In this document: piece by piece, positions 3,205 to 57,680 of the stretch | Layout of the letters: every line of letters starts with the position of its first letter | Position numbering within the stretch: the first letter of the stretch is position 1 | Assembly: GCF_001677475.2 (NCBI RefSeq) | Contig: NZ_CP015229.1 | From: Escherichia coli | GTDB lineage: Bacteria; Pseudomonadota; Gammaproteobacteria; Enterobacterales; Enterobacteriaceae | Strand: one strand, 5' to 3' | DNA length: 64,000 nt | Notes under the pieces: model-generated | Database searches by the model: none | Told to the model about the DNA's origin: nothing | The model's input: the letters and a program-made list of their open reading frames with translations, nothing else | Translations under genes and position numbers: made by a program

Positions 3205-4362
3205 TTATCTTGATGTTTTAGATATTGCCGGTCCGGCAGCACGCAAAGTTAACTGACGCCAGAGCCATTCCACCGGCCCCTGGCGGAAGTAACGCAGCCA
3301 GATAACAGAGAAGAGGATATTCGCCAGCCATACCGGAATAACAAACGCCAGCAGCTCCAGGCGGTCAAAATGCATAAACAAACCGAGGTGGTAAAAAAGC
3401 GTGGTACAAATCAGCGTTTGCAATAGATAGTTGGTCAGCGCCATCCGTCCGACGCAGGCGATCGCAAGCACCAGCTTAAAGCGGCTCAATTGCGGCCAGA
3501 AGCCATAAAACAGCGACGCATAGCCAATCGCCTGAAACGGCGCACTCAGTTCCCGCGGCATTTGAAGTAAGAAGGCACACCAGCGATACGCCCAGTCCAG
3601 CTGCCATTGCAGGGCGATGGCAGGAAGGTTAATGATCACCCCAATCGCCACCAGCACAAAACCAGTACGACGATAGTGACGTAAGCTGAACTGCCCTTTC
3701 AGCCAGCCGCTGCGCATCAGCGCCGCACCAATGAGCATCATCCCTGCCAGTTGCCAGCCATACTGTGCGCCCAGTGCCAGTAAACTGTTCCCAACACCAT
3801 CGGCACGATTACTGATCGCTTCAACACCACCATGAAGTTTCCAGTATTTTTCATACAAAATAGTCGACGCATCAGGCGTCCAGGCACGGCTGGTCTGGCT
3901 GTCGGAAATCAGCCCCAATAACAGCAAAACGCCAAGCCCCACCAGATAAAGCATGACGCCGGTATTAAACAGGCTTTTTACCGATGGCGCATCGCGCACC
4001 AGCCGCCAGCAGATTAAGCCCACCAGCCCGTAAGCCAGCAGAATATCGCCGTCCCAGAACAATAAACCGTGAATAAAGCCCAGCAAGACTAACAGCGTTA
4101 ACCGCGACTGGATCCAGCGTCTGCCACGGGGCAGCAACATTTGCAGGCCCGCACCAAACAGCAGCGCAAAAAGCGTGAGGAATTTCACCTGGCCGATGAG
4201 ATCGAGAAATGCCCAGGTCCATGCATCCTGTGGCGTAATAGCGCCATACCAGGCGGGATTAAGATAAGCCGCCTTTGGTAGCCCAAAGGCGCTGATGTTT
4301 AATAGCAGGATCCCCAGAATGGCGACGCCGCGAACAAAATCGAGCGTGACGTTGCGCTCCAT
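3205..4362 (-). CDS. yeiB: Inner-membrane protein (DUF418 family)
   Basis: 385-aa hydrophobic multi-TM ORF; conserved position between galS and folE. Confidence 0.8.
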   Translation of the reverse strand: MERNVTLDFVRGVAILGILLLNISAFGLPKAAYLNPAWYGAITPQDAWTWAFLDLIGQVKFLTLFALLFGAGLQMLLPRGRRWIQSRLTLLVLLGFIHGLLFWDGDILLAYGLVGLICWRLVRDAPSVKSLFNTGVMLYLVGLGVLLLLGLISDSQTSRAWTPDASTILYEKYWKLHGGVEAISNRADGVGNSLLALGAQYGWQLAGMMLIGAALMRSGWLKGQFSLRHYRRTGFVLVAIGVIINLPAIALQWQLDWAYRWCAFLLQMPRELSAPFQAIGYASLFYGFWPQLSRFKLVLAIACVGRMALTNYLLQTLICTTLFYHLGLFMHFDRLELLAFVIPVWLANILFSVIWLRYFRQGPVEWLWRQLTLRAAGPAISKTSR

Positions 4363-8443: not shown

Positions 8444-9913
8444 TTATTTCTTATCGTTCTGCGGGAACTTCATTTCGCTGTAGCGTACGAAGTGAGTTCC
8501 TTTAATCAGCTTGTAGCCGAACCAAATAATCAGGAACAGCGGGATACCAATATACGTTGCCGCTACGCCGCCCCAGTCAATGGTATCTTTCAGGAATGCT
8601 TCGTAGTTCTGGCCCAAAGTGATAATCAGACACAGAATGAATGCGAAGATCGGCCCCAGTGGGAAGAAACCTGAACGGTACGGCAGATCGTTAATGTCGT
8701 GTCCCTGCAATACGTAACCGCGACGGAAGCGATAGTGGCTAATGGCAATCCCCAGCCAGGCGATAAAACCCGTCATCCCGGAGGTGTTCAGCAGCCACAG
8801 GTATACCGTCTGATTGCCAAACATGGAGGTCAGGAAGCACAGACCGGCAATCACCGTCGTCGCATACAGCGCATTACGCGGCACGCCACCACGCGACAGT
8901 TTAGCGAAAATGCGCGGCGCTTTACCGTCACACGCCAGGGTGTACAGCATACGAGTAGACGCATACATACCGGAGTTACCCGCTGACAGCACCGCCGTCA
9001 GAATAACTGCGTTCATCACCGCCGCCGCAGAGAGCAGACCCGCGTGCTGGAACACCAGGGTGAACGGACTGACGCTGATGTCTTTAACATCGTTACGCAG
9101 CAGGCTCGGATCGGTGTACGGAATAATCAGGCTGATAATCAGGATCGCGAACACATAGAACAACAGGATTCGCCAGAACACCTGACGTACCGCGCGTGGA
9201 ATGTTTTTCGCCGGATCTTCGGACTCGCCTGCAGCAATACCGATCAGCTCGGTTCCCTGGAAAGAGAAGCCGACAATCATAGCTACGCCGATCATCGCCG
9301 CAAAACCACCAGCAAACGGCGCTTCGCCGATTGTCCAGTTGCTCCAGCCCGCAGGCTGCGCGCCTTTGAAGATACCGATAATCATCAGCACGCCAACGAT
9401 GATAAAGACAATAACTGTCGTGACTTTGATCAGTGAGAACCAGTATTCCGCTTCACCAAAGCCACGAACTGAGATGTAGTTCAGCAGGAAGATAACGCCG
9501 AGGAACAGCGCACTCCAGATCCAGCCCGGTGTATCCGGGAACCACCAGCTCATGACCAGCTGAGCTGCAACCAGGTCAACGGCGATAGTCACCGCCCAGT
9601 TGTACCAGTAGTTCCAGCCCAGCGCGAAGCCAAAGCCTTCTTCAACATAGTTCTGACCATAAGTGGCAAACGAACCGGAAACCGGCATATATGCAGCCAG
9701 TTCACCGAGACTGGTCATCAGGAAGTAAACCATCAGGCCAATCAACATATACGAGAGCAATGCCCCGCCCGGACCTGCCTGAGAAATCGTTGCGCCAGAG
9801 GCAACAAAAAGACCTGTACCGATGGAACCGCCAATGGCAATCATCGTCAGGTGACGCGCCTTTAATTCACGGAGTAAGCCCGGCGCTTCTGTGGTTTTAG
9901 TTTCGGAAACCAT
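8444..9913 (-). CDS. lysP: Lysine-specific permease (APC family)
   Basis: 489-aa 12-TM amino-acid permease ORF, MVSETKTTEAPGLLRELKARHLTMIAIGGSIGTGLF. Confidence 0.95.
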   Translation of the reverse strand: MVSETKTTEAPGLLRELKARHLTMIAIGGSIGTGLFVASGATISQAGPGGALLSYMLIGLMVYFLMTSLGELAAYMPVSGSFATYGQNYVEEGFGFALGWNYWYNWAVTIAVDLVAAQLVMSWWFPDTPGWIWSALFLGVIFLLNYISVRGFGEAEYWFSLIKVTTVIVFIIVGVLMIIGIFKGAQPAGWSNWTIGEAPFAGGFAAMIGVAMIVGFSFQGTELIGIAAGESEDPAKNIPRAVRQVFWRILLFYVFAILIISLIIPYTDPSLLRNDVKDISVSPFTLVFQHAGLLSAAAVMNAVILTAVLSAGNSGMYASTRMLYTLACDGKAPRIFAKLSRGGVPRNALYATTVIAGLCFLTSMFGNQTVYLWLLNTSGMTGFIAWLGIAISHYRFRRGYVLQGHDINDLPYRSGFFPLGPIFAFILCLIITLGQNYEAFLKDTIDWGGVAATYIGIPLFLIIWFGYKLIKGTHFVRYSEMKFPQNDKK

Positions 9914-47539: not shown

Positions 47540-47616
47540 CGGCACGTAGCGCAGCCTGGTAGCGCACCGTCATGGGGTGTCGGGGGTCGGAGGTTCAAAT
47601 CCTCTCGTGCCGACCA
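47540..47616 (+). tRNA. proL: tRNA-Pro (anticodon GGG)
   Basis: CGGCACGTAGCGCAGCCTGGTAGCGCACCGTCATGGGGTGTCGGGGGTCGGAGGTTCAAATCCTCTCGTGCCGACCA; cloverleaf with GGG anticodon; encoded CCA absent. Confidence 0.9.
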
Positions 47617-47618
47617 AA
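47602..47618 (+). repeat. attL core (3' end of tRNA-Pro)
   Basis: CTCTCGTGCCGACCAAA, identical to the copy at 58597-58613. Confidence 0.8.
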
Positions 47619-47652
47619 TCGCCCACCGGAAAGCACCGAATAAGACAGGGAT

Positions 47653-47686
47653 AACCCGCTAATCACTTGATTGGCGGGTTTTTTTA
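47653..47686 (+). terminator. Rho-independent terminator downstream of proL (island-borne)
   Basis: AACCCGCTAATCACTTGATTGGCGGGTTTTTTT: stem-loop plus T7 run. Confidence 0.6.
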
Positions 47687-47740
47687 TGGTTTTTAGTCAC
47701 CGAACATCACCGGATTTATAAGCTATCAGCCGGATTTTTT

Positions 47741-47790
47741 AGTTATACGTTTAGTTATACGGGCTGGCGTATAACTAAAGCCGTATAACT
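47741..47790. repeat. Candidate integrase arm-type sites: 2 x AGTTATACG followed by 2 x CGTATAACT (inverted)
   Basis: TAGTTATACGTTTAGTTATACGGGCTGGCGTATAACTAAAGCCGTATAACT just upstream of int; related GCTA(C/T)ACG pair near attR at 58515-58535. Confidence 0.5.
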
Positions 47791-47824
47791 AAAACCCTGT
47801 TTTTTCGTGTGGAATCATAGACAT

Positions 47825-49066
47825 ATGGCGAGAAAAACACCCCCATTAACCACAGTGCAGATCAAAGCAGCCAGACCAGCGCAAAAGGAGTACACCCTAC
47901 AGGACGGCGGTGGGCTTTTTCTCCTGGTAAAACCGTCCGGATCAAAACTCTGGCGATTTTCCTACTACCGACCATCGGACAAAAAAAGAATATTGCTGAG
48001 TTTTGGATCGCTTGAAGATGTTTCCCTGGCTGATGCCAGAAAACGCCGTAGCGAGTACAGGACGTTAATCAGTGCCGGAACTGACCCGCAGGACCATGAG
48101 AAGAAAAAACGAGAGGCAGAGGCCCGAAGACAAGGGAACACGTTCGAAAATGTGGCGGCGGCATGGTACCAGGTGAAAATCAGCCAGAATCTGGCCCCCA
48201 ACACGATTAAAGACATCTGGCGTTCGCTGGATAAATATGTATTCCCGTTCATCGGCAACACGCCAATAGATACCCTCACCGCTCGCCGCTTTGTTGAGAT
48301 ACTCACACCCATTAAAGCACGCGGCAACCTGGAAACTCTGAAACGCGTTTTACAACGCATCAATGAAGTGATGGATTTTGCTGCCAACAGTGGGCTGATT
48401 GACATCAACACCGCCGCGAACGTCCGCAAGGCATTCCCTTCCCCCACTAAAAAGCATATGCCAACCATCCGACCGGAACAGCTACCGCAGCTAATGCACG
48501 ATTTATCGGTCGCCAGCATAGAACGGCAAACCAGATTGCTAATCGAGTGGCAACTGCTGACCGTAGCACGCCCAGCCGAAGCAGCCGCCGCACGCTGGGA
48601 AGAAATAGATCTCGATGCCGAAACATGGACGATTCCAGCCGGACGCATGAAGATGCGCCGTGACCATGTGATCCCTCTTTGCGGTCAGGCGATAGCTGTA
48701 CTGGAAACAATGAAGCCAATCAGCGCACACAGGGAACATGTTTTTCCCAGCCTTAAAAATCCAATGCTGCCAATGAGCAGCCAGACCGCTAACGCTGCAT
48801 TGCGCCGGATGGGATACGCTGGTGTGCTGGTGTCTCACGGATTACGCGCCATATTCAGTACAGCAGCGAACGAGGAAGGATTCGAGCCGGACGTAATCGA
48901 GGCCGCACTCGCACACGTGGACACGAACGAGGTAAGGCGAGCATATAACCGAAGTAACTACCTGGAAAAGCGCGTGGTGCTTATGCGCTGGTGGGGGGAA
49001 TTTGTAGAGGCCGCAGCTACCGGAGTGACCATAGCCAGTGGTAAAAGGGGTATCCGTGCCGTGTAA
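47825..49066 (+). CDS. int: Tyrosine recombinase / integrase, P4-like (N-terminal DUF4102-type arm-binding domain)
   Basis: MARKTPPLTTVQIKAARPAQKEYTLQDGGGLFLLVKPSGSKLWRFSYY... with C-terminal catalytic region (HGLRA...RAYNRSNY); adjacent to tRNA. The GTG at 47807 is an alternative start. Confidence 0.85.
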   Translation: MARKTPPLTTVQIKAARPAQKEYTLQDGGGLFLLVKPSGSKLWRFSYYRPSDKKRILLSFGSLEDVSLADARKRRSEYRTLISAGTDPQDHEKKKREAEARRQGNTFENVAAAWYQVKISQNLAPNTIKDIWRSLDKYVFPFIGNTPIDTLTARRFVEILTPIKARGNLETLKRVLQRINEVMDFAANSGLIDINTAANVRKAFPSPTKKHMPTIRPEQLPQLMHDLSVASIERQTRLLIEWQLLTVARPAEAAAARWEEIDLDAETWTIPAGRMKMRRDHVIPLCGQAIAVLETMKPISAHREHVFPSLKNPMLPMSSQTANAALRRMGYAGVLVSHGLRAIFSTAANEEGFEPDVIEAALAHVDTNEVRRAYNRSNYLEKRVVLMRWWGEFVEAAATGVTIASGKRGIRAV

Positions 49067-49164
49067 CTGTACAAAAAACCAGTAAAAGCGATGCAAACCA
49101 TGCCAAACCATCGTATAATTGCCACAAATTTAACGACAAGGCCGGAGTATATGAAAATTCTATT

Positions 49165-49395
49165 ATGCAAAATACCACCGCCTACGGCGAAGGGCTGCAA
49201 CTGGCGTTAATGGCAAATCGTGAATTCTGGTCAACATACGATCCGGAAGACAAATCAACAGCCCCCACAAAACACGAGGTAGTCAGTTTTTTGCGCTCGC
49301 GTGGTGCATCGAAAAATCTGGCTGAAAGCATCGACAAGGTGCTGAGGCCCACCAGCCTTAAATGCGGTGGGCGACCTAAGAAGTGGAAACGGTAA
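49165..49395 (+). CDS. Hypothetical small protein (76 aa) followed by a terminator-like hairpin
   Basis: ORF with basic C-terminus (GGRPKKWKR); hairpin ATAGCGGCCCTTTGCGGTCGCTATTTTTTT at 49401-49430. Confidence 0.35.
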   Translation: MQNTTAYGEGLQLALMANREFWSTYDPEDKSTAPTKHEVVSFLRSRGASKNLAESIDKVLRPTSLKCGGRPKKWKR

Positions 49396-49565
49396 TCACA
49401 ATAGCGGCCCTTTGCGGTCGCTATTTTTTTGCAGAAAGAAAAGCGTAATCAATGAGATAAAAAACAGTGGGTACCGTTTTAAAACGGTGGGTACTGTTTT
49501 TCCCGCCCTGCCCTGTTTTACCGTATTTATCACCGGAATACGCCGGATTAACGAGGTAAAACATA

Positions 49566-49772
49566 GTGGAAACAATCAGAAAAATACTTACCCGTCAGGA
49601 AGTAAAAAATATTCTGCGCATCAAGGCAGACAGTTCGCTACAGGACATGATCAACGCCGGAAAATTCCCGAAAGGCTTCAAAATCGGTCTGCGTCGTGTT
49701 GGCTGGTATGAAGATGAAGTGCTGGCCTGGCTGAAAGAGCGCGAGGAAGAAGCGCGCGGAACGGCTGCGTAA
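49566..49772 (+). CDS. alpA: AlpA-family (HTH_17) transcriptional regulator / excisionase-like protein
   Basis: GTG start with GAGG SD; 68 aa, LTRQEVKNILRIKADSSLQDMINAGKFPKGFKIGLRRVGWYEDEVLAWL matches the AlpA/prophage CP4-57 regulator pattern. Confidence 0.8.
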   Translation: METIRKILTRQEVKNILRIKADSSLQDMINAGKFPKGFKIGLRRVGWYEDEVLAWLKEREEEARGTAA

Positions 49773-50054
49773 TGGTGTGAGGCGTAACGCGATGAACATA
49801 ACAAAAAGCGCCCCGTTGCCGGAGCGCCCTTGCGAACAATTAACCTACTGCGCAAAAAATGAATCAGTGCAGTGGGATTATATCAACCGTGTAGCGAAGC
49901 GCCACAATTGCCGGATAACAGGCAAAACAAAGGCCACCCGCTACGGTGGCCCTTCGACACAAGCTACACGTTATCCCCAACGCATAAGCGCTGATTACTA
50001 TGCCGTGATTACATCCGGTTGGCAATGTGATCAGTGCGCTGGCTTGCTGGTGGG

Positions 50055-50234
50055 CTATTCCTGCTCTTTGGCCTTGCGTCGCTGGCGGCGTTTGATCTCG
50101 CCTTGCATTGACGCAATGATGAATTGTGATGTGCTTTCGCCTGATTCTTTCACTGATTCCATGGCGTTTACTATTTCGTGTGGTACACGAGCCTTTAGAG
50201 CTTGTGATTTTGCGTTTGTTGTACCCGTTGCCAT
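50055..50234 (-). CDS. Ribbon-helix-helix (Arc/CopG-like) DNA-binding protein; candidate island repressor
   Basis: 59 aa MATGTTNAKSQALKARVPHEIVNAMESVKESGESTSQFIIASMQGEIKRRQRRKAKEQE; GAGGA SD 6 nt upstream; terminator-like hairpin GGCCACCCGCTACGGTGGCC at 49932-49952 with T-rich tail on the minus strand. Confidence 0.6.
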   Translation of the reverse strand: MATGTTNAKSQALKARVPHEIVNAMESVKESGESTSQFIIASMQGEIKRRQRRKAKEQE

Positions 50235-50298
50235 TTCTATTCCTCTGTTGGATTGGTGGGGGACAGTATACACAGAAAAAGCACAAATAAAACTCTTA

Positions 50299-50335
50299 AT
50301 GTGGACCACACCTAGAGCATATAGTGGGCCACACC
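50299..50335. promoter_or_regulatory. Two palindromic operator-like sites (TGTGGACCACACCT and GTGGGCCACACCT) in the divergent promoter region
   Basis: GTGG-N-CCAC palindromes 24 bp apart between the RHH gene and the rightward small-gene operon. Confidence 0.45.
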
Positions 50336-50433
50336 TTGAGGTTATCAAGGTGCATAAATGCAAAGCCCCGCAAGTGTCGTTACCACTCGCAGGGCTTCTA
50401 ACCACCAACGATAGCAGAAGTATCGAGGTAGCT

Positions 50434-50640
50434 ATGTTAAATCATACCACACACCCGCAAGGGCGGGACTCGCACAACCTGAATAAATACATCTGGCGTT
50501 TTATCGCTCTGAGCACGGCACAACCGCGCGTGATTACCATTGAGGCCACCAGCGAACAGGAAGCACGTCAGCAATCTCCTGATGGCTGCGTGATGGTATT
50601 CGCCGCCCGTATTCGTCAGGAGGTGCGCCATGTGCAATAA
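50434..50640 (+). CDS. Hypothetical protein (69 aa), first gene of the rightward operon
   Basis: ATG with GAGGT SD; stop overlaps the next start (ATG at 50630). Confidence 0.4.
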   Translation: MLNHTTHPQGRDSHNLNKYIWRFIALSTAQPRVITIEATSEQEARQQSPDGCVMVFAARIRQEVRHVQ

Positions 50641-50866
50641 CACCCGTCCGGACGCAGCCGCCGAGGCTATCAGAACGCTGATGGACGCGCTGATTGATAT
50701 TTCTGTTATCGCAGACAAGGCGCATAAGCACGCCACCAGCGAAACAGAATATGCCGGGGCTTTCGTTCCTCACTCACTGGCTGTTATGCAATTTAGTGCT
50801 GATATGGCGCTGAATGAGGCCAGCAAAATTATCATGGCTGATATGGAGGTGGTGAGCCATGAATAA
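50630..50866 (+). CDS. Hypothetical protein (78 aa)
   Basis: Strong AGGAGG SD 5 nt upstream; translational coupling on both sides. Confidence 0.5.
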   Translation: MCNNTRPDAAAEAIRTLMDALIDISVIADKAHKHATSETEYAGAFVPHSLAVMQFSADMALNEASKIIMADMEVVSHE

Positions 50867-51107
50867 TCATGATTATGCGGGGGCGATTATGCGAAATAAA
50901 CGTGATATTGAAGACCTGGCATTTGAAGCCCTGCACTCTGCGAAAAAGATCAGGGAAGTCGTCAATATGTGGATGAACAGCCTTAGCACCGATAAATCCG
51001 ATAGCAGAGAGGAAATTCTTATTTCTTTGTTGTTAGACCTGGCAAATACACAGGTTTCTCTGACATCTGATATTGAACTCGCCGCTAAAAAGCTGCCTCT
51101 GGAGTAA
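50859..51107 (+). CDS. Hypothetical protein (82 aa)
   Basis: GGAGGTG SD; overlaps the previous stop. Confidence 0.5.
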   Translation: MNNHDYAGAIMRNKRDIEDLAFEALHSAKKIREVVNMWMNSLSTDKSDSREEILISLLLDLANTQVSLTSDIELAAKKLPLE

Positions 51108-51113
51108 AAAAAC

Positions 51114-51413
51114 ATGAAAAAGAAAAATTCTGGCTTTACTGCCAGTGGTCTCCCTCGGCCTGAAATCCGCCCCGGCGATATTTTCCGGGATAACTACGGC
51201 GGCACGGTAACGATTAAAAGTATTGCCGGACGGTGCGTTACTTACCGCCGTGATGGGTACAGCTACGACTGCGTGATGCCTGTTTATCAGTTCCGGCGTG
51301 ATTTTTCACTGATACAGGCCACACCACGCAAACAGCCCACCAGCAACGCAAAGGCACGGGCAAATATTCAGAAAATGAAAAACATGATTAACGCATTCAG
51401 GGGCACAAAATGA
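51114..51413 (+). CDS. Hypothetical protein (99 aa)
   Basis: GGAG SD; stop overlaps the pri start (ATGA). Confidence 0.45.
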   Translation: MKKKNSGFTASGLPRPEIRPGDIFRDNYGGTVTIKSIAGRCVTYRRDGYSYDCVMPVYQFRRDFSLIQATPRKQPTSNAKARANIQKMKNMINAFRGTK

Positions 51414-53215
51414 AACTGGCACCGAACTTAAAAAAACAGCCACACGACAAAATGACCGAAGTCATTATTTTTGCAGGTAGTGATGCCTGGGCGCACGCGA
51501 AACAGTGGCAGGAACAGGACGGGCGACTTGCTGGCGACAACGTGCCACCTGTATGGCTGGGAGACAGCCAGCTTGACGAACTGGCAGACCTGAAAATTAT
51601 CGACGATGGTCGCTATTGTGTCCGGCTGTACAAGGCAGGCCACATCAAGCCGTCAAATATTAATGCCATCGGGCAAAAGCTGGCGGCGGCAGGTGTACGG
51701 GATGCGAGATATTACCCTGAGGGAATGCACAGCCAGAAGCGGGAGGAGTGGCGCGAATATCTGGAGCGTGCGCGCCAGAATCTTTCTGATGGTCTGGTTA
51801 TTCAGCTTCCTGTTAAGAAAAAAACAGAAGACAGCGCCGCACCACTGGCGCTTAACCAGATGGGAGCAAGCCAGCGCGGCGAAGTTCTCCTGGCACGTTA
51901 TGGCGGCGAACTGGCAATTAATGCGGACTCTGACACCGTTCACCACTACAACGGCGTTGTATGGGAGCCGGTACAGGATAAAGAGTTACAGCGGGCTATG
52001 GCACAGATTTTTATTGATGCGGAGATCAGTTATTCGCAGAACGCCATCAAATCGGCGGTCGATACCATGAAGTTAAGTTTGCCCGTAATGGGGAATACCG
52101 CCCGTAACCTGATTGGATTCAGTAACGGTGTTTTTGATACCCGGACAGGCGATTTTCGGGAGCATGACAAAAACGACTGGCTGTTAATTGCCAGTGAATT
52201 ACCGTTCAGCCCGCCAGCAGAGGGGGAAACGCTGGCAACGCATGCGCCGAATTTCTGGAAATGGTTGCGCCGTTCGGTGGCAGAGAATGGCCGTAAAGCG
52301 GATCGCGTACTGGCGGCGTTATTCATGGTGCTGGCGAACCGATACGACTGGCAGTTATTTCTTGAGGTAACGGGGCCGGGTGGAAGCGGTAAAAGCGTAA
52401 TGGCGGAGATTTGCACCATGCTGGCGGGTAAGGCCAACACGGTATCGGCAAGCATGAAGGCGCTGGAAGATGCCAGGGAACGCGCGTTAGTGGTTGGCTT
52501 TTCGCTGATTATCATGCCGGATATGACCCGCTACGCTGGTGATGGTGCAGGTATTAAGGCCATTACAGGCGGTGACAAAGTGGCAATCGACCCGAAACAT
52601 AAAGCTCCCTACTCAACACGCATTCAGGCGGTCGTGCTGGCGGTGAACAATAACGCCATGTCATTCAGTGACCGCAGTGGGGGGATCTCACGTCGTCGGG
52701 TGATATTCAATTTTTCGGAGGTTGTACCGGAGAACGAACGCGACCCCATGCTGGCAGAAAAAATAGAAGGAGAGCTGGCGGTTGTGATTCGCCACCTGCT
52801 TACTCGTTTTTCTGACCAGGACAAAGCTAAACGCCTGCTGTATGAGCAGCAGAAATCAGAAGAAGCTCTGGTGATAAAACGCGAGGGCGATTCGCTGGTG
52901 GACTTCTGCGGCTATCTCATGTCGTCGGTAATGTGTGATGGTCTGTTAGTGGGTAATGCCGAAATTATTCCGTTCAGTCCGCGCAGATATCTTTATCACG
53001 CCTATCTGGCATATATGAGGGCACACGGATTCGGTAAACCTGTAACACTGACGCGCTTCGGTAAAGATATGCCGGGGGCAATGGCGGAATATGGCAGGGA
53101 GTATATGAAACGGAAAACGAAGCACGGTTTGCGTTCAAATGTGACCCTGACAGAGGATTCAGAAGACTGGATGCCATCATGTACATCGGTCACAAATGAC
53201 GATGGAAAAAATTAA
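51410..53215 (+). CDS. Replication protein: primase C-terminal-like / SF3-type helicase P-loop NTPase (satellite Pri-Rep)
   Basis: 601-aa ORF with Walker A TGPGGSGKS and a hydrophobic stretch ending in D (Walker B-like, VVGFSLIIMPD); immediately followed by an iteron-rich origin. Confidence 0.75.
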   Translation: MKLAPNLKKQPHDKMTEVIIFAGSDAWAHAKQWQEQDGRLAGDNVPPVWLGDSQLDELADLKIIDDGRYCVRLYKAGHIKPSNINAIGQKLAAAGVRDARYYPEGMHSQKREEWREYLERARQNLSDGLVIQLPVKKKTEDSAAPLALNQMGASQRGEVLLARYGGELAINADSDTVHHYNGVVWEPVQDKELQRAMAQIFIDAEISYSQNAIKSAVDTMKLSLPVMGNTARNLIGFSNGVFDTRTGDFREHDKNDWLLIASELPFSPPAEGETLATHAPNFWKWLRRSVAENGRKADRVLAALFMVLANRYDWQLFLEVTGPGGSGKSVMAEICTMLAGKANTVSASMKALEDARERALVVGFSLIIMPDMTRYAGDGAGIKAITGGDKVAIDPKHKAPYSTRIQAVVLAVNNNAMSFSDRSGGISRRRVIFNFSEVVPENERDPMLAEKIEGELAVVIRHLLTRFSDQDKAKRLLYEQQKSEEALVIKREGDSLVDFCGYLMSSVMCDGLLVGNAEIIPFSPRRYLYHAYLAYMRAHGFGKPVTLTRFGKDMPGAMAEYGREYMKRKTKHGLRSNVTLTEDSEDWMPSCTSVTNDDGKN

Positions 53216-53227
53216 ACTTATGGAATA

Positions 53228-53459
53228 ACTGTTCACCACTGTTCACCCTGTCATAAATGTCTTTTATATCAGTACATTATAGGGTGAACAGTTATTTGTG
53301 AACTGTTCACCAAACTATTCACTGTTCACCTTTTTGATTATTTATTGAGCTTTAAGGGTGAACAGTGGTGAACAGTTGGTGAATAGTTTTTGTGAAACTG
53401 TTCACCCCTTAACATCATGAATAAAAAGGGAAAATAGCAAAAGGTGAACAGGTGAAGAG
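53228..53459. repeat. Iteron-type replication origin: about 10 copies of ACTGTTCACC / GGTGAACAG in both orientations with AT-rich spacers
   Basis: CACTGTTCACCACTGTTCACC, GGGTGAACAGTT, GTGAACTGTTCACC, TTCACTGTTCACC, GGGTGAACAGTGGTGAACAGTTGGTGAATAG, GAAACTGTTCACC, AAGGTGAACAGGTGAAGAG. Confidence 0.75.
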
Positions 53460-53502
53460 TTAAAATGCAAAAATTTTATTTTATTGCTGTGAGGTAAAGC
53501 CT

Positions 53503-53748
53503 GTGACAACGAAGCACGCAAAAAAACCACAATCACACGCCCTTGATTTGACAGAACACTGGCTGAGGGTGGCGATAAAAATCATCGACCGCAACGCGGG
53601 AGAAGGATACGCGAAAGCGCATCCCGAACTGATAAGCGCATTCATGACCACGGCGGCGGCAAATTTTGCCACACTGACAGAACGGGAGATTGCCGAAGCG
53701 GAACAGGTGACAACCATCAACGTTAAAACCGGAGAGCAGACAGCATGA
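53503..53748 (+). CDS. Hypothetical protein (81 aa)
   Basis: GTG start with GAGGT SD; overlaps the start of the next ORF. Confidence 0.4.
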   Translation: MTTKHAKKPQSHALDLTEHWLRVAIKIIDRNAGEGYAKAHPELISAFMTTAAANFATLTEREIAEAEQVTTINVKTGEQTA

Positions 53749-54044
53749 CAGCACAGATAGCGGCTTGCGGGCGGCTGGTGGCTGACCCGCAGTTAAAGAC
53801 CACCAGCAAAGGGACACAAATGGCGATGGCGAGTATGGCGGTTCCCCTGCCGTGCAGCCAGGCAGATGACGGAACGGCGACGATGTGGTTATCTGTCCTG
53901 GCGTTTGGCAGACAGGCCGACGCACTGGCAAAACACCACAAAGGCGAACTCCTGAGCGTGGCGGGTAACATGCAGGTGAGCCAGTGGACAGGCCAGAACG
54001 GCGCGACCGGGCGGCAAAAAAGGTCAACAGGGCCAGGCCACTGA
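53745..54044 (+). CDS. SSB-like OB-fold single-stranded DNA-binding protein (short form)
   Basis: IAACGRLVADPQLKTT...WLSVLAFGRQADALAKHHKGELLSVAGNMQVSQWTGQNG follows the SSB OB-fold pattern (GxL..DPEL... W..V.xFG ... KG..V.V.G.L....W). Confidence 0.55.
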   Translation: MTAQIAACGRLVADPQLKTTSKGTQMAMASMAVPLPCSQADDGTATMWLSVLAFGRQADALAKHHKGELLSVAGNMQVSQWTGQNGATGRQKRSTGPGH

Positions 54045-54322
54045 CGCACTGAACAGGGCAAAACAACAGTCAGGGAATGATGAACCGTACGGCGATAATA
54101 TACCGTTTTAAATTCTGCAAACAAAAAGATGCCGGAAAAAAATAGATTTTCCGGCATGCTACATAAATCCCGACCAAAGGAAGTAAATACATTAACACGA
54201 ATTATCAGCACTGAAGTTGTCACGGCATATTTTATACAACATTGCACTTGGTTGCATGTATTCGCATAGCAGACATCGGTAATAGAATATATTCACAATT
54301 ATTTGTAATGAATGTAAAGAGG

Positions 54323-55369
54323 ATGAGTATGGTTGATTTATATTCGCCTACACAGCTTGTGCAGGTGGCTAATGCTGAAGATGTGCAAAAAAAATTAAAT
54401 GCGTTGTTTACCAGTTTGTTTTTCACTCGCTCGGTAATGTTTGAATCGAGAGACATTATTCTTGATACGATCGACGATCCAAATATCCCGATCGCGGCGT
54501 TTTGCTCTCCTATGGTGGGCAGTAAAGTTTCACGAGATGAGGGATACGAATCAAAAACAATTCGCCCTGGCTATATGAAACCGAAAAGCAGTATTGATCC
54601 AAATAAGTTAGCTGTGCGCCCTGCTGGTGTATCACCTGAGCAATACAATGCTTTTGGGGCGCGTAATATTAAAGTTAAACAGGCGATTGTAAATCAGGCT
54701 AAAGCTATTCGTGCACGTATTGAATGGCTTGCTGTTCAGGCAATCACAACGGGGAAAAATATCATTGAGGGCGATGGTATTGAACGTTATGAGCTGGACT
54801 GGAATATAAAACCACAAAATATCATCACTCAGTCTGGCGGTACTGAGTGGTCAGGTAAGGATAAAGAAACTTTTGATCCAAATGATGATATTGAGAGCTA
54901 CGCAGAATTTAGTGAGGGCGTCACTAATATCATCATTATGGGTGGTAATGTATGGAAGAAATACCGTTCATTCAGAGCGATAAAAGAGGCTTTGGATACC
55001 CGTCGTGGTTCTAATTCCGAACTGGAAACGGCCCTTAAAGACCTTGGTGATTCGGTGAGTTTTAAAGGGTATATGGGCGATGTTGCGATTGTTGTTTACA
55101 GCGGGCGTTATACCGACGAGGACGGAACAGAAAAACATTTCCTTGATCCTGATTTGATGGTGCTTGGCAATACGGCTCTTCAGGGGATTGTCGCCTATGG
55201 CGGTATTCAGGATCCGGAGCTAATCCGAATGGGGCTGACTAAAGCCGAACTTGCACCGAAAAACTATATTGTGCCTGGTGATCCGGCTATTGAATATGTG
55301 CAGACACATTCAGCACCACAGCCAATACCGGCCCGCATCAATCGTTTTGTTACCGTTCGCATTGGCTAA
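54323..55369 (+). CDS. Major capsid protein, lambda gpE family
   Basis: MSMVDLYSPTQL... with NITQSGGTEWSGKDKETFDPNDDIESYA, DTRRGSNSELETALKDLGDSVSFKG and GDVAIVVYSG, matching lambda E as recalled from memory (start may be the ATG at 54329). Confidence 0.8.
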   Translation: MSMVDLYSPTQLVQVANAEDVQKKLNALFTSLFFTRSVMFESRDIILDTIDDPNIPIAAFCSPMVGSKVSRDEGYESKTIRPGYMKPKSSIDPNKLAVRPAGVSPEQYNAFGARNIKVKQAIVNQAKAIRARIEWLAVQAITTGKNIIEGDGIERYELDWNIKPQNIITQSGGTEWSGKDKETFDPNDDIESYAEFSEGVTNIIIMGGNVWKKYRSFRAIKEALDTRRGSNSELETALKDLGDSVSFKGYMGDVAIVVYSGRYTDEDGTEKHFLDPDLMVLGNTALQGIVAYGGIQDPELIRMGLTKAELAPKNYIVPGDPAIEYVQTHSAPQPIPARINRFVTVRIG

Positions 55370-55378
55370 GGGGGAGCA

Positions 55379-55720
55379 ATGGCTACTCATTACACTGAAC
55401 TCATGTCTGGCACTGAAGCACTGGTTACTACGCTGGGGATATTTTCAGCCAATAAAGGGGTAATACCTGCGTTTACGCCACTGATGCAGGAAGATGCAAC
55501 TGGTGCGCTAGTGGTATGGGATGGAACGAGCGCAGGCAAAGCGGTTTATGTTTCCGCTGTACAAATCGACACAGCGAAAAAAACACAGGCACAGGTTTAT
55601 AAGACAGGTGTTTTAAATGTTGATGCTCTGAACTGGCCTGAGTCTGTAAAAGAACTGTCGGCAAAGGTTGCCGCGTTTGTTGGCTCAGGTATTTCTGTTC
55701 AGCCGCTGGCTCGTGTGTAA
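55379..55720 (+). CDS. Head decoration protein, lambda gpD family
   Basis: 113 aa; TPLMQEDATGALVVWDGTSAGKAV...YKTGVLNVDALNWPE...AAFVGSGISV parallels lambda D as recalled from memory. Confidence 0.75.
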   Translation: MATHYTELMSGTEALVTTLGIFSANKGVIPAFTPLMQEDATGALVVWDGTSAGKAVYVSAVQIDTAKKTQAQVYKTGVLNVDALNWPESVKELSAKVAAFVGSGISVQPLARV

Positions 55721-55731
55721 AGGGGGATACA

Positions 55732-56115
55732 ATGCAGAATCATTACAATGACCTTAAGCCAATTGCCGAAATGATGTATCCGGATCCAGCAGTAGAGGAA
55801 TTAAAGGCTATTGCTGACAAAATGCGTTTAAGTGAACGCCTTGTTGATATGAATCAGGTGATGGAACTTACTACCCTTAGCCGTCGCACATTGCTAAACC
55901 TTGAGGCTCGCGGAGAGTTCCCCGAACGCGTACAGGTTACGGAAGGGCGTAAGGCCTGGTATTTAAGTGAAGTGATCGACTGGATAAACAATATTCCTCG
56001 AGCTTCTGAATATTGCCGCGTACCTGTCCCAAAAAAGCCAGATGCGGCGCTATGCCTCAAGATTGAGCGTGTACGTCGCAATGCACGGGATGGTCGCTAT
56101 AAGTTGATTGGTTGA
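55732..56115 (+). CDS. AlpA/HTH_17-family DNA-binding protein with N-terminal extension
   Basis: LVDMNQVMELTTLSRRTLLNLEARGEFPERVQVTEGRKAWYLSEVIDWINN matches the AlpA-type HTH pattern; lies directly upstream of cos. Confidence 0.55.
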   Translation: MQNHYNDLKPIAEMMYPDPAVEELKAIADKMRLSERLVDMNQVMELTTLSRRTLLNLEARGEFPERVQVTEGRKAWYLSEVIDWINNIPRASEYCRVPVPKKPDAALCLKIERVRRNARDGRYKLIG

Positions 56116-56140
56116 TGAAATTAGGGCCCGTTCTGGCTGG

Positions 56141-56215
56141 CGGGTCCTTTCCGGCGATCCGGTAGGCTACGGGGCGGCGACCTTGCGGATTTTCGCTATT
56201 TATGAGCCTTTTCGG
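56141..56215 (+). other. Lambda-type cos site (cosQ-cosN plus conserved flank)
   Basis: CGGGTCCTTTCCGGCGATCCGGTAGGCTACG|GGGCGGCGACCT|TGCGGATTTTCGCTATTTATGA; the 12-nt GGGCGGCGACCT (56172-56183) equals the lambda cohesive end as recalled from memory. Confidence 0.75.
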
Positions 56216-56316
56216 GTTGGTGGTGGTGGTTTTGTTTTTCGCTCTATCTCTATGAATAAAAAGGGAAAGATAACACCAACACACCAACCTGAAACCTTAA
56301 CTAAGTGGGGATATTG

Positions 56317-56859
56317 ATGAAATCGCACCTGATGAACAAAAAAACTATGGCGCAAAGCTGCCGCGTAAGTGCGACAGCGTTCGACAAGTGGGGAGTAACT
56401 CCCGTTGAGCGTAAAGGCCGTGAGGCGTTTTATGATGTTGCCAGCGTGATAGACAATAGGGTTAACAATGCAATTAACCAGCTTACAAACGACAAAGGCG
56501 AGATTGATGATGATGAACTTTTACGCGTAAGAATCAGATTAATGACGGCCCAGGCGGAAGCGCAGGAACTTAAAAACGAGCGCGAACGCGGCGAGGTGAT
56601 TGATACAAAGTTTTGCATCTACGCGATTTCAAAACTGGCGAGTCAGATTTCATCAATCATGGACAGCCTCCCGCTCACAATGCAAAGGCGCTTTCCCGAT
56701 ATAAGGCCGTATATGCTGGATGAACTAAAAAGGGAAATAGCCAAAGCATGTAACGCATGTGCAAGACTTGACGAAAACCTGCCACAGATACTGGCTGATT
56801 ACCTGATGGAAACTACCGGAAGCGCGCCTGAGAAGTTGCTACAGAACAAAGGCGAGTAA
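56317..56859 (+). CDS. Terminase small subunit, lambda Nu1 family (no large subunit gene follows)
   Basis: RLMTAQAEAQELKNERERGEVIDTKFCIYAISKLASQISSIMDSLPLTMQRRFPD and C-terminal LKREIAKACNACARLDENLPQILADYL match lambda Nu1 as recalled from memory; gene sits about 135 bp downstream of cosN. Confidence 0.75.
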   Translation: MKSHLMNKKTMAQSCRVSATAFDKWGVTPVERKGREAFYDVASVIDNRVNNAINQLTNDKGEIDDDELLRVRIRLMTAQAEAQELKNERERGEVIDTKFCIYAISKLASQISSIMDSLPLTMQRRFPDIRPYMLDELKREIAKACNACARLDENLPQILADYLMETTGSAPEKLLQNKGE

Positions 56860-56932
56860 CCGCCGCCCCGTAACGGGCCATAATTCCAGGAGGGACCCGA
56901 CGACACCAGGCTATCAGAGCGATGGGGGCACA

Positions 56933-57214
56933 ATGACAGAAGCCGAAATACTGCGATTAATCCGCCGCGTTACCGGAATCAGCCAGCAGGCTGACGAACA
57001 GGCCACGCAGCCGGACAGCGTGACCGCTGAAAATTATGTGCGTGTTGTTGCTGAGGTGATGCGCCGTGATGGTATTGAGCTTAACGGCGTGGATATGCGC
57101 AACATACGAACAAGAGTCCTTGAGTTGCTGGCATACCGTCGCCGGATACAGACGTACAGGGAAAAAGCCAAAATAACGTACCAGTGGAAGAAGCCGGAGC
57201 GGTTACGGCGGTAA
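56933..57214 (+). CDS. Hypothetical protein (93 aa)
   Basis: ATG ORF downstream of terS-like gene; Arg-rich C-terminus; no recognised motif. Confidence 0.4.
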   Translation: MTEAEILRLIRRVTGISQQADEQATQPDSVTAENYVRVVAEVMRRDGIELNGVDMRNIRTRVLELLAYRRRIQTYREKAKITYQWKKPERLRR

Positions 57215-57235
57215 CTTGCTGAACTTAAAGCATAA

Positions 57236-57333
57236 TGGAAATTTGCACTCTGGCCTAACCCGTTAATATTTCAGCAAAGTGCAAATTTGCGTTCTGTAGC
57301 TGGTGGCTGGCAGAATGTAAATTTACATTCTGG
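57236..57333. repeat. Three related palindromic sites sharing an AAATTT core and ending in TTCTG or CTCTG
   Basis: GGAAATTTGCACTCTGG (57236), GTGCAAATTTGCGTTCTG (57279), CAGAATGTAAATTTACATTCTGG (57311; 20-bp perfect palindrome). Confidence 0.6.
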
Positions 57334-57337
57334 TGAT

Positions 57338-57637
57338 TTAATCATCTGATTTACCCAGCCCGTACCGGATTACCGTACAGTGAGCGCCATCGCTACCGAT
57401 ACGCACATCAAAGCGGGGTTCGCGCACTTTCACGCGGTACAGGATCCCATCATTTACCATAGCGTTTAACGTTCGTCGGGTTGCCTCTATGTGGTATCGC
57501 TGATATTCGGAACCATAGAGCAGCAATGTAACACCACGAACATCAAATGGTGGTTCTCCAGCCTCCACCCGCACCCAATCGCGATACTCAGGTTTGTAAA
57601 GTTCAAGAATCTGTTTTTTGTGCCTGGTCATTCTCAT
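57338..57637 (-). CDS. Hypothetical protein (99 aa), reverse-oriented accessory gene
   Basis: ATG preceded by AGGA SD 7 nt upstream; MRMTRHKKQILELYKPEYRDWVRVEAG...; no recognisable family. Confidence 0.5.
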   Translation of the reverse strand: MRMTRHKKQILELYKPEYRDWVRVEAGEPPFDVRGVTLLLYGSEYQRYHIEATRRTLNAMVNDGILYRVKVREPRFDVRIGSDGAHCTVIRYGLGKSDD

Positions 57638-57680
57638 GTGTGATTCCTTATTGTGGGACAGTACTGTCATACAATAAGCT

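Follow-up and report, generated by a model that had tools for sequence, protein, structure and literature searches.

Tandem box-and-hairpin repeats at the late-operon 3′ end of Escherichia coli PICI-type phage satellites

The IHF-associated BIME-1/RIP repeats (RIB) of E. coli are extragenic elements clustered past the last gene of an operon. In them, a site with the IHF consensus stands beside imperfect palindromes whose stems show compensatory variation, and a dual role has been proposed for them, as hairpins at the 3′ end of the mRNA and as architectural sites on the DNA. The repeats that we describe here resemble them in each of these respects, and the BIME-1/RIP repeats are, by analogy, the closest known elements: the logic is common, while their defining sequence features are missing. 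The units of the present family are without the ~35-bp REP consensus and without the GTAG tetranucleotide, and their hairpins are shorter, with 8-11 bp in two tiers (12-25 nt) compared with ~15 bp. Furthermore, they stand in direct tandem, whereas REPs form inverted pairs flanking the IHF site, and they are confined to satellites, whereas REPs are dispersed in the chromosome. The IHF sites of the units are predicted ones.

EcCICFT073-type PICIs and capsid-forming PICIs (cf-PICIs) are the main experimental models of Gram-negative phage satellites. The DNA analysed here is a 64-kb stretch of E. coli sequence (the window), which contains at 47602-58613 an 11-kb phage satellite of the EcCICFT073 PICI family, located at tRNA-Pro between yejM and yejO. 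The setting in a helper-dependent island, which the original prediction had assumed, was borne out. The island begins with genes for an integrase, a P4-type primase, an SSB, a lambda gpE-like capsid protein, a gpD-like decoration protein and an AlpA-like protein, and ends with a lambda-type cosQ-cosN, a Nu1-like small terminase (TerS) gene, an ORF of 93 aa, the array of palindromes studied here, an orphan ORF and PerC. EcCICFT073 has the same layout with RppA replacing the full TerS, in the order cos1, rppA, inverted cos2, 93-aa ORF, three units of the repeat described below, and attR adjoining phoQ. Chi occurs 11 times in the island (~11 kb) and 12 times in the remaining 53 kb of the window. 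The features to which the text refers are as follows.

47602 and 58597: att cores of 17 bp (CTCTCGTGCCGACCAAA); the island integrase acts at the tRNA-Pro core.
56140-56205: lambda-type cosQ-cosN, upstream of the Nu1-like TerS gene and ~1.05 kb upstream of the array, with cosN GGGCGGCGACCT at 56172-56183.
56933-57214, + strand: 93-aa ORF, the last conserved gene of the late/packaging operon; PHROG 1561, with function unassigned there.
57207-57253, + strand: unit 1, composed of GGCGG, box TAACTTGCTGAAC (57212-57224) and a hairpin (site 1).
57231-57252: site 1, the hairpin half of unit 1, an imperfect palindrome with 8/11 positions symmetric.
57252-57297, + strand: unit 2, composed of GGCC, box TAACCCGTTAATA (57256-57268) and a two-tier hairpin (site 2).
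57275-57296: site 2, the hairpin half of unit 2, an imperfect palindrome with 8/11 positions symmetric.
57299-57306, + strand: Chi site GCTGGTGG, between sites 2 and 3.
57311-57332, no strand assigned: site 3, a perfect 22-bp palindrome with halves CAGAATGTAAA and TTTACATTCTG, giving a 9-bp stem and an AAUU loop.
57338-57640, − strand: orphan ORF of 100 aa, convergent to the 93-aa ORF; no family match.
57339-57351, + strand: exact IHF-consensus match TAATCATCTGATT, overlapping the orphan-gene stop codon just right of site 3.
57681-58052: PerC, which forms an accessory module with the orphan ORF; the module splits the usual non-coding spacer.
58063-58100, + strand: degenerate fourth unit after the PerC stop, composed of GTGTAACCAGGCAACC and the hairpin GACTATC-TGAAA-GATAGTC.

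The original prediction had described three related palindromes, spaced about 40 bp apart, in a non-coding gap between convergent genes, and this description held. A search of the 64 kb with the pattern CAGAATGYAAATTTRCATTCTG identified three dyad-symmetric 22-bp sites starting at 57231, 57275 and 57311, with 3, 3 and 0 mismatches, respectively; no further match was found elsewhere in the window, and none in 100 shuffles. A repeat search recovered the same three copies, whose starts are 44 and 36 bp apart. They are flanked by the stops of the 93-aa ORF (57214) and of the convergent orphan ORF (57338-57640, − strand). Their lengths had to be revised: sites previously given as 17-20 bp, with one perfect palindrome of 20 bp, are 22 bp long, and site 3 is perfect over 22 bp. 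A scan revealed no promoter-like site in the array and, for both strands of 57200-57340, no intrinsic terminator (a G+C-rich stem with a T run); the tail behind a stem has at most 3 T. The box upstream of sites 1 and 2, the Chi site, the IHF match at 57339 and the complementarity between sites 1 and 2, which are able to form a single long hairpin, had been overlooked earlier.

The consensus sequences of known regulators were compared by eye. The lack of a LexA fit, already stated in the original prediction, was seen again, and Fis, ArgR, the PurR/LacI family (no central CG), Lrp, FNR, marbox, TyrR (TGTAAA-N6-TTTACA, with N0 here), Tus/Ter, dif and hix did not fit either. The sole consensus fit among the regulators compared was that of the upstream box to IHF. 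A cos or cosB identity of the array was also rejected, with the real cosQ-cosN lying at 56140-56205 and with cos1 and cos2 of EcCICFT073 lying upstream of the ORF. The array does recall lambda cosB (R sites and the IHF site I1) in having IHF site(s) and short repeats near a Nu1-type small terminase gene; however, the lambda R sites are non-palindromic, and cf-PICIs with a different terminase bear the same units.

We are highly confident that the three palindromes belong to a family of tandem repeats specific to satellites, in which a box is followed by a variable hairpin. The unit is ~46 bp long and consists of a conserved box and, ~8 nt on, an imperfect two-tier palindrome. The box reads GGCGG or GGCC followed by TAAC-NNN-YTGATATT, and its opposite strand is the IHF consensus WATCAR-NNNN-TTR (YAANNNNYTGATW). 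The consensus of the 5′ part of the unit is GGCGG or GGCC, then T-A-A-C-n-n-g-y-T-G-A-t-a-t-T. Positions T0, A1, A2, T8, G9 and A10 of the box are nearly invariant, with three variable positions in between, just as in the IHF consensus, and an A/T-rich flank (ATTTT or ATTCC) lies on the WATCAR side. In the hairpin, 3-5 bp make up the outer stem and 4-7 bp the inner one; an internal loop rich in purines separates the two, and the terminal loop has 3-4 nt, the first of them A.

Compared with this anatomy, the window array is a short, partly decayed version, with two imperfect-box units, a Chi site and a third hairpin minus its box. The box of unit 1 has 2 mismatches to YAANNNNYTGATW, and its hairpin is slightly decayed, G57238 disrupting the inner stem that is intact (TGCAAATTTGCA) in two related loci (L029 and L058). 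The box of unit 2 has 1 mismatch to the IHF consensus, TTAAT for TTGAT, which alters the most conserved C of ATCAA. Site 3 is without an upstream box in the window; in a cf-PICI locus (L003), its hairpin (GAGTATAAATTTACATTC) is preceded by a full box, and the IHF match of 57339-57351 is kept there, where the orphan gene is missing. In other genomes, site 3 co-travels with the orphan gene and the PerC module. A well-scoring unit was found in another island (L006) at the place matching the degenerate fourth unit, after the PerC stop. The 64-kb window holds no units elsewhere, and no antisense target of the box was found within it.

Units were identified by eye in five related loci (L002-L006). 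Among the satellites with units behind the homologue of the 93-aa ORF are a capsid-forming PICI in yifB and, at clpS, phoQ and yejO, islands of the EcCICFT073 type. A search with an alignment of the 93-aa ORF then yielded 80 further loci from IMG/VR, giving 56 non-redundant 3′ regions, and these were searched with an nhmmer profile built from 12 hand-picked units. The profile found 146 units on the + strand, while the − strand gave 27 weak matches (E above 0.04) overlapping the palindromic parts of the + units. Units were present in 49 of the 56 regions, with 1-6 in each and always in one orientation, that of the operon; the other 7 regions were without any unit. In 46/56 regions, the stop codon of the ORF is part of the first unit, because the TAA of ..CGGCGGTAAC.. 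opens the box, and in the window the TAA stop of the ORF likewise forms the first three bases of the unit 1 box. Adjacent units are spaced 43-55 bp apart. Their copy number and order differ among close relatives, and single islands hold several unrelated hairpin types. Units occupy the first part of the untranslated spacer behind the 93-aa ORF in EcCICFT073-type PICIs, the prototype EcCICFT073 among them, and in cf-PICIs, so that the array sits at the joint of the conserved late/packaging operon and the variable accessory region running to attR.

Among 5426 complete E. coli genomes, 1241 (about a quarter) contain one particular unit type, at 1-6 places per genome and nearly always at unannotated positions, and every context that was inspected proved to be a satellite island. 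Using the window array and a six-unit array (L076) as queries, we found no unit arrays among 50,697 phage records, where the matches were limited to stretches of 27-36 nt within coding genes. A 36-nt patch inside the antirepressor gene of phage phiP27 was treated as incidental. PICI papers and literature searches by topic and by literal sequence gave no description of the units. Taken together, these results allow us to conclude with high confidence that the repeat family is undescribed so far in the searched literature and is widespread at the late-operon 3′ end of E. coli PICI-type satellites.

The hairpins vary strongly in sequence. The inner hairpins comprise 27 distinct sequences, whose centres give palindromes 12, 13 or 14 bp long, for example CCTCA-ATT-TGAGG, GCGCA-AAAT-TGCGC, TCCCCC-ATT-GGGGGA, CAGCC-AAC-GGCTG, TTCGCC-AGC-GGCGAA and TGCA-AATT-TGCA, and their loops are non-uniform (AAAU, AUU, AAUU, AAAA, AGC and AAC). 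We examined their covariation in ungapped alignments centred on the predicted hairpins, a design that inflates the percentage of paired cells and not the compensatory changes: in the odd-loop alignment (A4), 94% of the cells were paired as compared with 74% in shuffled sequences, and both sides had changed in 6 of 8 pairs, while in the even-loop alignment (A5) the values were 90% and 83%, with both-side changes in 4 of 6 pairs; a slid partner reached at most 49%. The mean folding energy of the units was -9.1 kcal/mol, compared with -4.0 kcal/mol in shuffles. Judged from these sequences, the AAATTT core is one among many interchangeable hairpin sequences, and what is conserved is the box together with foldability.

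In the original prediction, the palindromes had been read as a protein-binding array, either regulatory or partition-like, or as a recombination site. Because the palindrome sequence is variable across islands and the AAATTT core incidental, an array read through AAATTT is unsupported. Conservation in related islands, the check proposed at that time, was run, and it was found for the units (49 of the 56 regions) and not for the palindrome sequence. We give little credence to an operator-, partition- or res-like array in which one dimeric protein, encoded by the island or by the helper phage, would bind the AAATTT palindromes. Within the window, the sites do have dyad symmetry, and their six half-sites have the common consensus CA-g-A-r-t-G-y-AAA; three related dyad sites in ~100 bp recall lambda OR1-OR3 or the res site of Tn3/gamma-delta, and site 3 is a perfect palindrome travelling with the orphan gene, a possible binder gene. 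However, this half-site is common within the window only, and across the family both the sequence and the half spacing of the palindromes vary, with unrelated hairpin types coexisting in single islands. The rest of the window lacks the motif, its promoters included, and the array stands between two 3′ ends. Neither a promoter, a resolvase nor a repressor accompanies the array as in OR1-OR3 or res: no serine recombinase, ParA/ParB or repressor was seen among the island ORFs and in the annotation of the homologous island, and the partition-like role had no partition gene or cognate regulator to go with it there. The orphan protein matches no DNA-binding family, and the divergent promoter region of the orphan gene and PerC carries a different palindrome. 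The variable spacing of the units (43-55 bp) also argues against a phased, cooperative protein array. If a protein binds at all, IHF at the boxes is more likely than a dimer on the AAATTT cores.

Next to the hairpins, the boxes show a strong bias toward the IHF consensus. Among 64 distinct units, 36 match YAANNNNYTGATW exactly and 48 match it with at most 1 mismatch. The first 500 nt 3′ of the ORF contain 70 exact IHF matches in 20.7 kb (3.4 per kb), all in a single orientation, compared with 15 in 209 kb of neighbouring upstream coding DNA (given as 0.02-0.05 per kb), indicating a roughly 100-fold enrichment after the ORF. The att cores served as an internal positive control: exact matches were found beside both of them (47660 and 58567), where use of IHF by an integrase of this type is expected.

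Our preferred reading, which we regard as plausible rather than probable, is that the units form an IHF-bound, hairpin-prone boundary that separates the late operon from the accessory region and doubles as a recombination joint. IHF would bind the boxes on double-stranded DNA and bend it sharply, with snap-back palindromes adjoining each bend, and the cluster of units would form a nucleoprotein boundary closing the late operon. With its short portable homologies and the nearby Chi, the cluster would in addition serve as a joint for the exchange of accessory modules between islands. The hairpins would also be expected to form in the late transcript, because there is no terminator between the ORF and the array, and there they may protect the 3′ end. 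We infer these functions from sequence, IHF binding being predicted from the 13-bp consensus. Several features speak against the IHF model: the window boxes are imperfect, with 2 and 1 mismatches; the conserved positions C3, T14, G18 and A21 lie outside the IHF core, with G18 in the outer stem, and call for a separate explanation; and the variable unit spacing disfavours a phased, cooperative array here as well.

The IHF-consensus enrichment, together with the lack of a G-U excess (small counts), fits a DNA-level element. Other features are of a different kind. Conservation of the outer stem beyond an internal loop of mismatches is more typical of single-strand folding, in RNA or ssDNA, than of a duplex protein site or a cruciform. 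The tie of the first unit to the stop codon, the operon orientation and the lack of a promoter or terminator before the array likewise suggest single-strand folding, and the stop-codon tie together with the unit-like elements after the PerC stop fits a role in a 3′ untranslated region. It is possible, if on the unlikely side, that the units are an RNA element, that is, structured repeats in the 3′ untranslated region of the late mRNA. Their hairpins would then stop 3′-to-5′ exonucleases or exclude Rho from a long untranslated stretch, and by analogy with nut sites (boxA and boxB) the box and hairpin may be a platform for the 93-aa protein. The two-tier stems with purine-rich internal loops covary in both tiers, and the ORF and array are co-inherited in two satellite types of otherwise different packaging. 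The most conserved stretch of the 93-aa protein is its C-terminal basic tail (YRRR..YQWKKPERLRR), which recalls the arginine-rich motif of lambda N. Like the lambda nut and rrn antiterminators, the units would place a linear box and then a short hairpin in a transcript, next to a gene for a small protein with an arginine-rich, Trp-containing basic segment. In contrast to those systems, the unit box is not boxA, the loops are varied and not like the GNRA-like boxB pentaloop, and the units lie in several tandem copies at the end of the operon and not after its promoter. Furthermore, G-U cells were not significantly in excess of A-C cells (14 versus 9, p = 0.40; small counts), and the + strand gained no folding energy over the − strand (-9.13 versus -8.97 kcal/mol, p = 0.64). 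A search of the window region and six related loci gave no relevant Rfam match at E up to 5. The stems are weak as exonuclease barriers, the 93-aa protein is without a recognisable RNA-binding fold, and an RNA element leaves the ~100-fold enrichment of the IHF consensus unexplained.

The two proteins encoded on either side of the array were also examined. The family of the 93-aa protein is narrow, with 45 cluster representatives at 50% identity, and no relatives were found in Pfam, NCBIfam, PADLOC or PDB. An AlphaFold2 model (pLDDT 71) predicts three helices and the basic tail YQWKKPERLRR, with no significant Foldseek match. A homeodomain identity was considered on the basis of a weak match (E ~0.1-0.2) and was judged not credible. 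Homologues of the ORF lie at the same position in EcCICFT073 and in cf-PICIs, and when representative genomes were scanned for the ORF, the yield was limited to three distant loci (L007-L009) from the genera Edaphovirga, Pluralibacter and Buttiauxella; these retain the C-terminal YQWKKPE, and the profile detected no units near them. In EcCIEDL933, a mutant of the hypothetical gene 1792 replicates and shows poor transfer; an attempt to equate this gene with the 93-aa ORF gave no mapping. The orphan protein had no match in PHROGs, NCBIfam, PADLOC or Pfam. Judged from sequence, neither protein can be assigned as the binder of the array.

We further compared where homology between islands ends. 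More than 1000 E. coli genomes carry TerS and the ORF in common with the window at 85-96% identity, and the match stops at 57222, inside box 1. In 527 genomes, the cf-PICI TerS-TerL-ORF block was matched over most of its length, and the best matches stop at the stop codon of the ORF. The full array of the window was found in only 16 of the 5426 genomes, and others have a part of it, either unit 1 alone (57209-57272) or the stretch from 57296 onwards alone (Chi, site 3 and the orphan gene). An all-against-all comparison placed 54% of the homology breakpoints in units, which make up 18% of the sequence, an enrichment that is partly circular because repeated units yield local alignments ending at unit edges; the breakpoints cluster at the unit edges and at the box/hairpin junction. 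According to the authors of the cf-PICI work, the region past the packaging operon is variable and expected to encode immune systems, and in one island (L006) the accessory module is flanked by units. The earlier suggestion of a recombination site thereby gained circumstantial support, from the homology breaks at the units and the Chi site within the array; a serine recombinase to act on such a site was not seen among the island ORFs and in the annotation of the homologous island.

A further reading gives the units no present function: they would be what repeated recombination events, unequal or illegitimate, have left behind at the end of the operon, or else a miniature selfish repeat spreading in this spacer. 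Unit copy number and order are variable among close relatives, the window copies are decayed, 7 of the 56 regions are unit-free, and several units open with a copy of the last bases of the ORF (GGCGCGGTAAC). We consider this unlikely, since stem sequences are replaced, with compensation in both tiers, next to a box that is retained, a pattern that requires selection on sequence and structure, and since the units are confined to one place in the island and not scattered.

REP-RAYT elements, IS200/IS605 ends, attC sites and the ssi of RSF1010 all pair a conserved linear motif with a hairpin whose sequence is free. By analogy, the units might be a single-stranded DNA signal, either for priming by the P4-type primase in rolling-circle replication or as a cassette site like attC or REP-RAYT, and we hold this to be quite unlikely. 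The strictly uniform orientation agrees with such a signal, and the island has its own primase and SSB. As in attC, REP-RAYT and IS200/IS605, the short motif adjoins a free-sequence hairpin with internal mismatches, homology breakpoints coincide with the elements, and the location is a hotspot of accessory genes, with the unit-flanked L006 module as an instance. However, no cognate recombinase is annotated in the island, and no HUH/Y1 enzyme or integron-type integrase was found among the island ORFs or in the annotation of the homologous island. Most units are adjacent to one another, without an intervening gene or cassette. The complementary R′/R″ ends of attC are also missing: GCCTAAC fits R″ (RYYYAAC) in some units, while no R′ (GTTRRRY) follows the hairpin. 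In this PICI family, replication starts from an origin mapped beside the primase gene (PMC6092414). The most specific form of the cassette-site idea, in which the units would be structure-specific recombination sites letting PICI-type satellites capture and swap accessory or defence cassettes at the hotspot past the late operon, with the activity coming from the 93-aa protein, IHF and a host or helper enzyme, is by analogy conceivable and in our view very unlikely indeed.

The region past the packaging operon is where EcCICFT073-type PICIs and cf-PICIs carry their anti-phage systems, and a conserved module, the 93-aa ORF followed by non-coding repeats of a putative IHF box and a hairpin, sits exactly there. 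Whether the units work as an IHF-bound boundary and joint, as we tentatively favour, or in RNA, either reading can be put to a direct test in EcCICFT073, for which a genetic system with lambda or phi80 helpers already exists. If the units act in RNA, they would represent a new 3′ untranslated region element controlling late-operon expression. Should they be IHF-binding sites or recombination joints, this would go some way to explaining how accessory genes are exchanged among satellites, and the IHF reading, if true, would add a host factor to the satellite life cycle.

Many islands carry, distally in their non-coding DNA, a second type of repeat, CTGAAT followed by a variable hairpin, ACGCAG, N7 and AAGG, as at the following positions:

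Window 58355-58385: CTGAAT...AAGG repeat
L005 (related locus) 4290-4330: CTGAAT...AAGG repeat
L090 (the CFT073 locus) 9060-9100: CTGAAT...AAGG repeat

The stems of this repeat carry compensatory changes (GGTCATAATGACC, AATCATTATGATT, CACCATGATGGTG), and in some copies the second arm is repeated as a third segment, so that alternative pairings are possible. Moreover, in some islands, not all of which carry box-plus-hairpin units, we identified iterons in the 3′ region, CGTGAC or AGTGAC in four copies at about 11-bp spacing. This is the pattern that would be expected of an excisionase or AlpA-type binding site.

L011 (related locus) 3285-3330: CGTGAC/AGTGAC iterons
L079 (related locus) 3390-3430: CGTGAC/AGTGAC iterons

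A stretch of about 35 nt with about 90% identity to one box-plus-hairpin unit (TGATATTTTCGGAAACCTCAATTTGAGG...) was also found within antirepressor genes of the KilAC or Rha family in lambdoid prophages, and could be a patch of phage-satellite recombination.

Phage phiP27, AJ298298.1, 7998-8033: unit-like stretch
E. coli 55989, NC_011748.1, 2693761-2693795: unit-like stretch

In the accessory module, the orphan gene starts 40 bp away from the PerC ORF, and this gap is occupied by a 32-bp near-perfect palindrome (CTTATTGTGGGACAGT / ACTGTCATACAATAAG; window 57647-57678), a candidate operator of the divergent promoters. Between PerC and attR, the tetranucleotide GGCT is repeated about 12 times (window 58160-58210), forming a slippage-prone microsatellite. 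Both att cores are flanked by an exact match to the IHF consensus, and TAGTTATACG repeats, candidate integrase arm sites, adjoin attL.

Window 47660-47672: exact IHF-consensus match, about 45 bp right of the attL core
Window 58567-58579: exact IHF-consensus match, 30 bp left of the attR core

Chi sites (GCTGGTGG) are about 4-5 times denser in the satellite (window 47602-58613) than in the flanking chromosome, and a Chi site is present in the 3′ non-coding region of nearly all related islands. This richness could protect linear concatemers against RecBCD in an element without a Gam protein.

Window 48987, 50046, 52894, 53774, 57299, plus strand: Chi sites
Window 49349, 50546, 50733, 51337, 53800, 58444, minus strand: Chi sites

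Directly 3′ of the TerS stop codon lies a second cos, inverted and truncated (..CGTTACGGGGCGGCGG..; window 56860-56879, minus strand), which corresponds to the inverted and functional cos2 of EcCICFT073; the window copy, however, is cut within cosN. The interval from cosN to the TerS start codon holds an inverted repeat that is long but imperfect (window 56209-56295). This repeat is a candidate cosB site for the Nu1-like terminase of the island itself; its Rfam matches to microRNA precursors were spurious.

In the packaging module of the capsid-forming PICI EcCIEDL933, a mutant of 'hypothetical gene 1792' replicated normally and was transferred poorly (bioRxiv 10.1101/2022.09.08.507074). This gene may be a homologue of the 93-aa ORF, and if it is, the module of ORF and repeat array would be tied to transfer.
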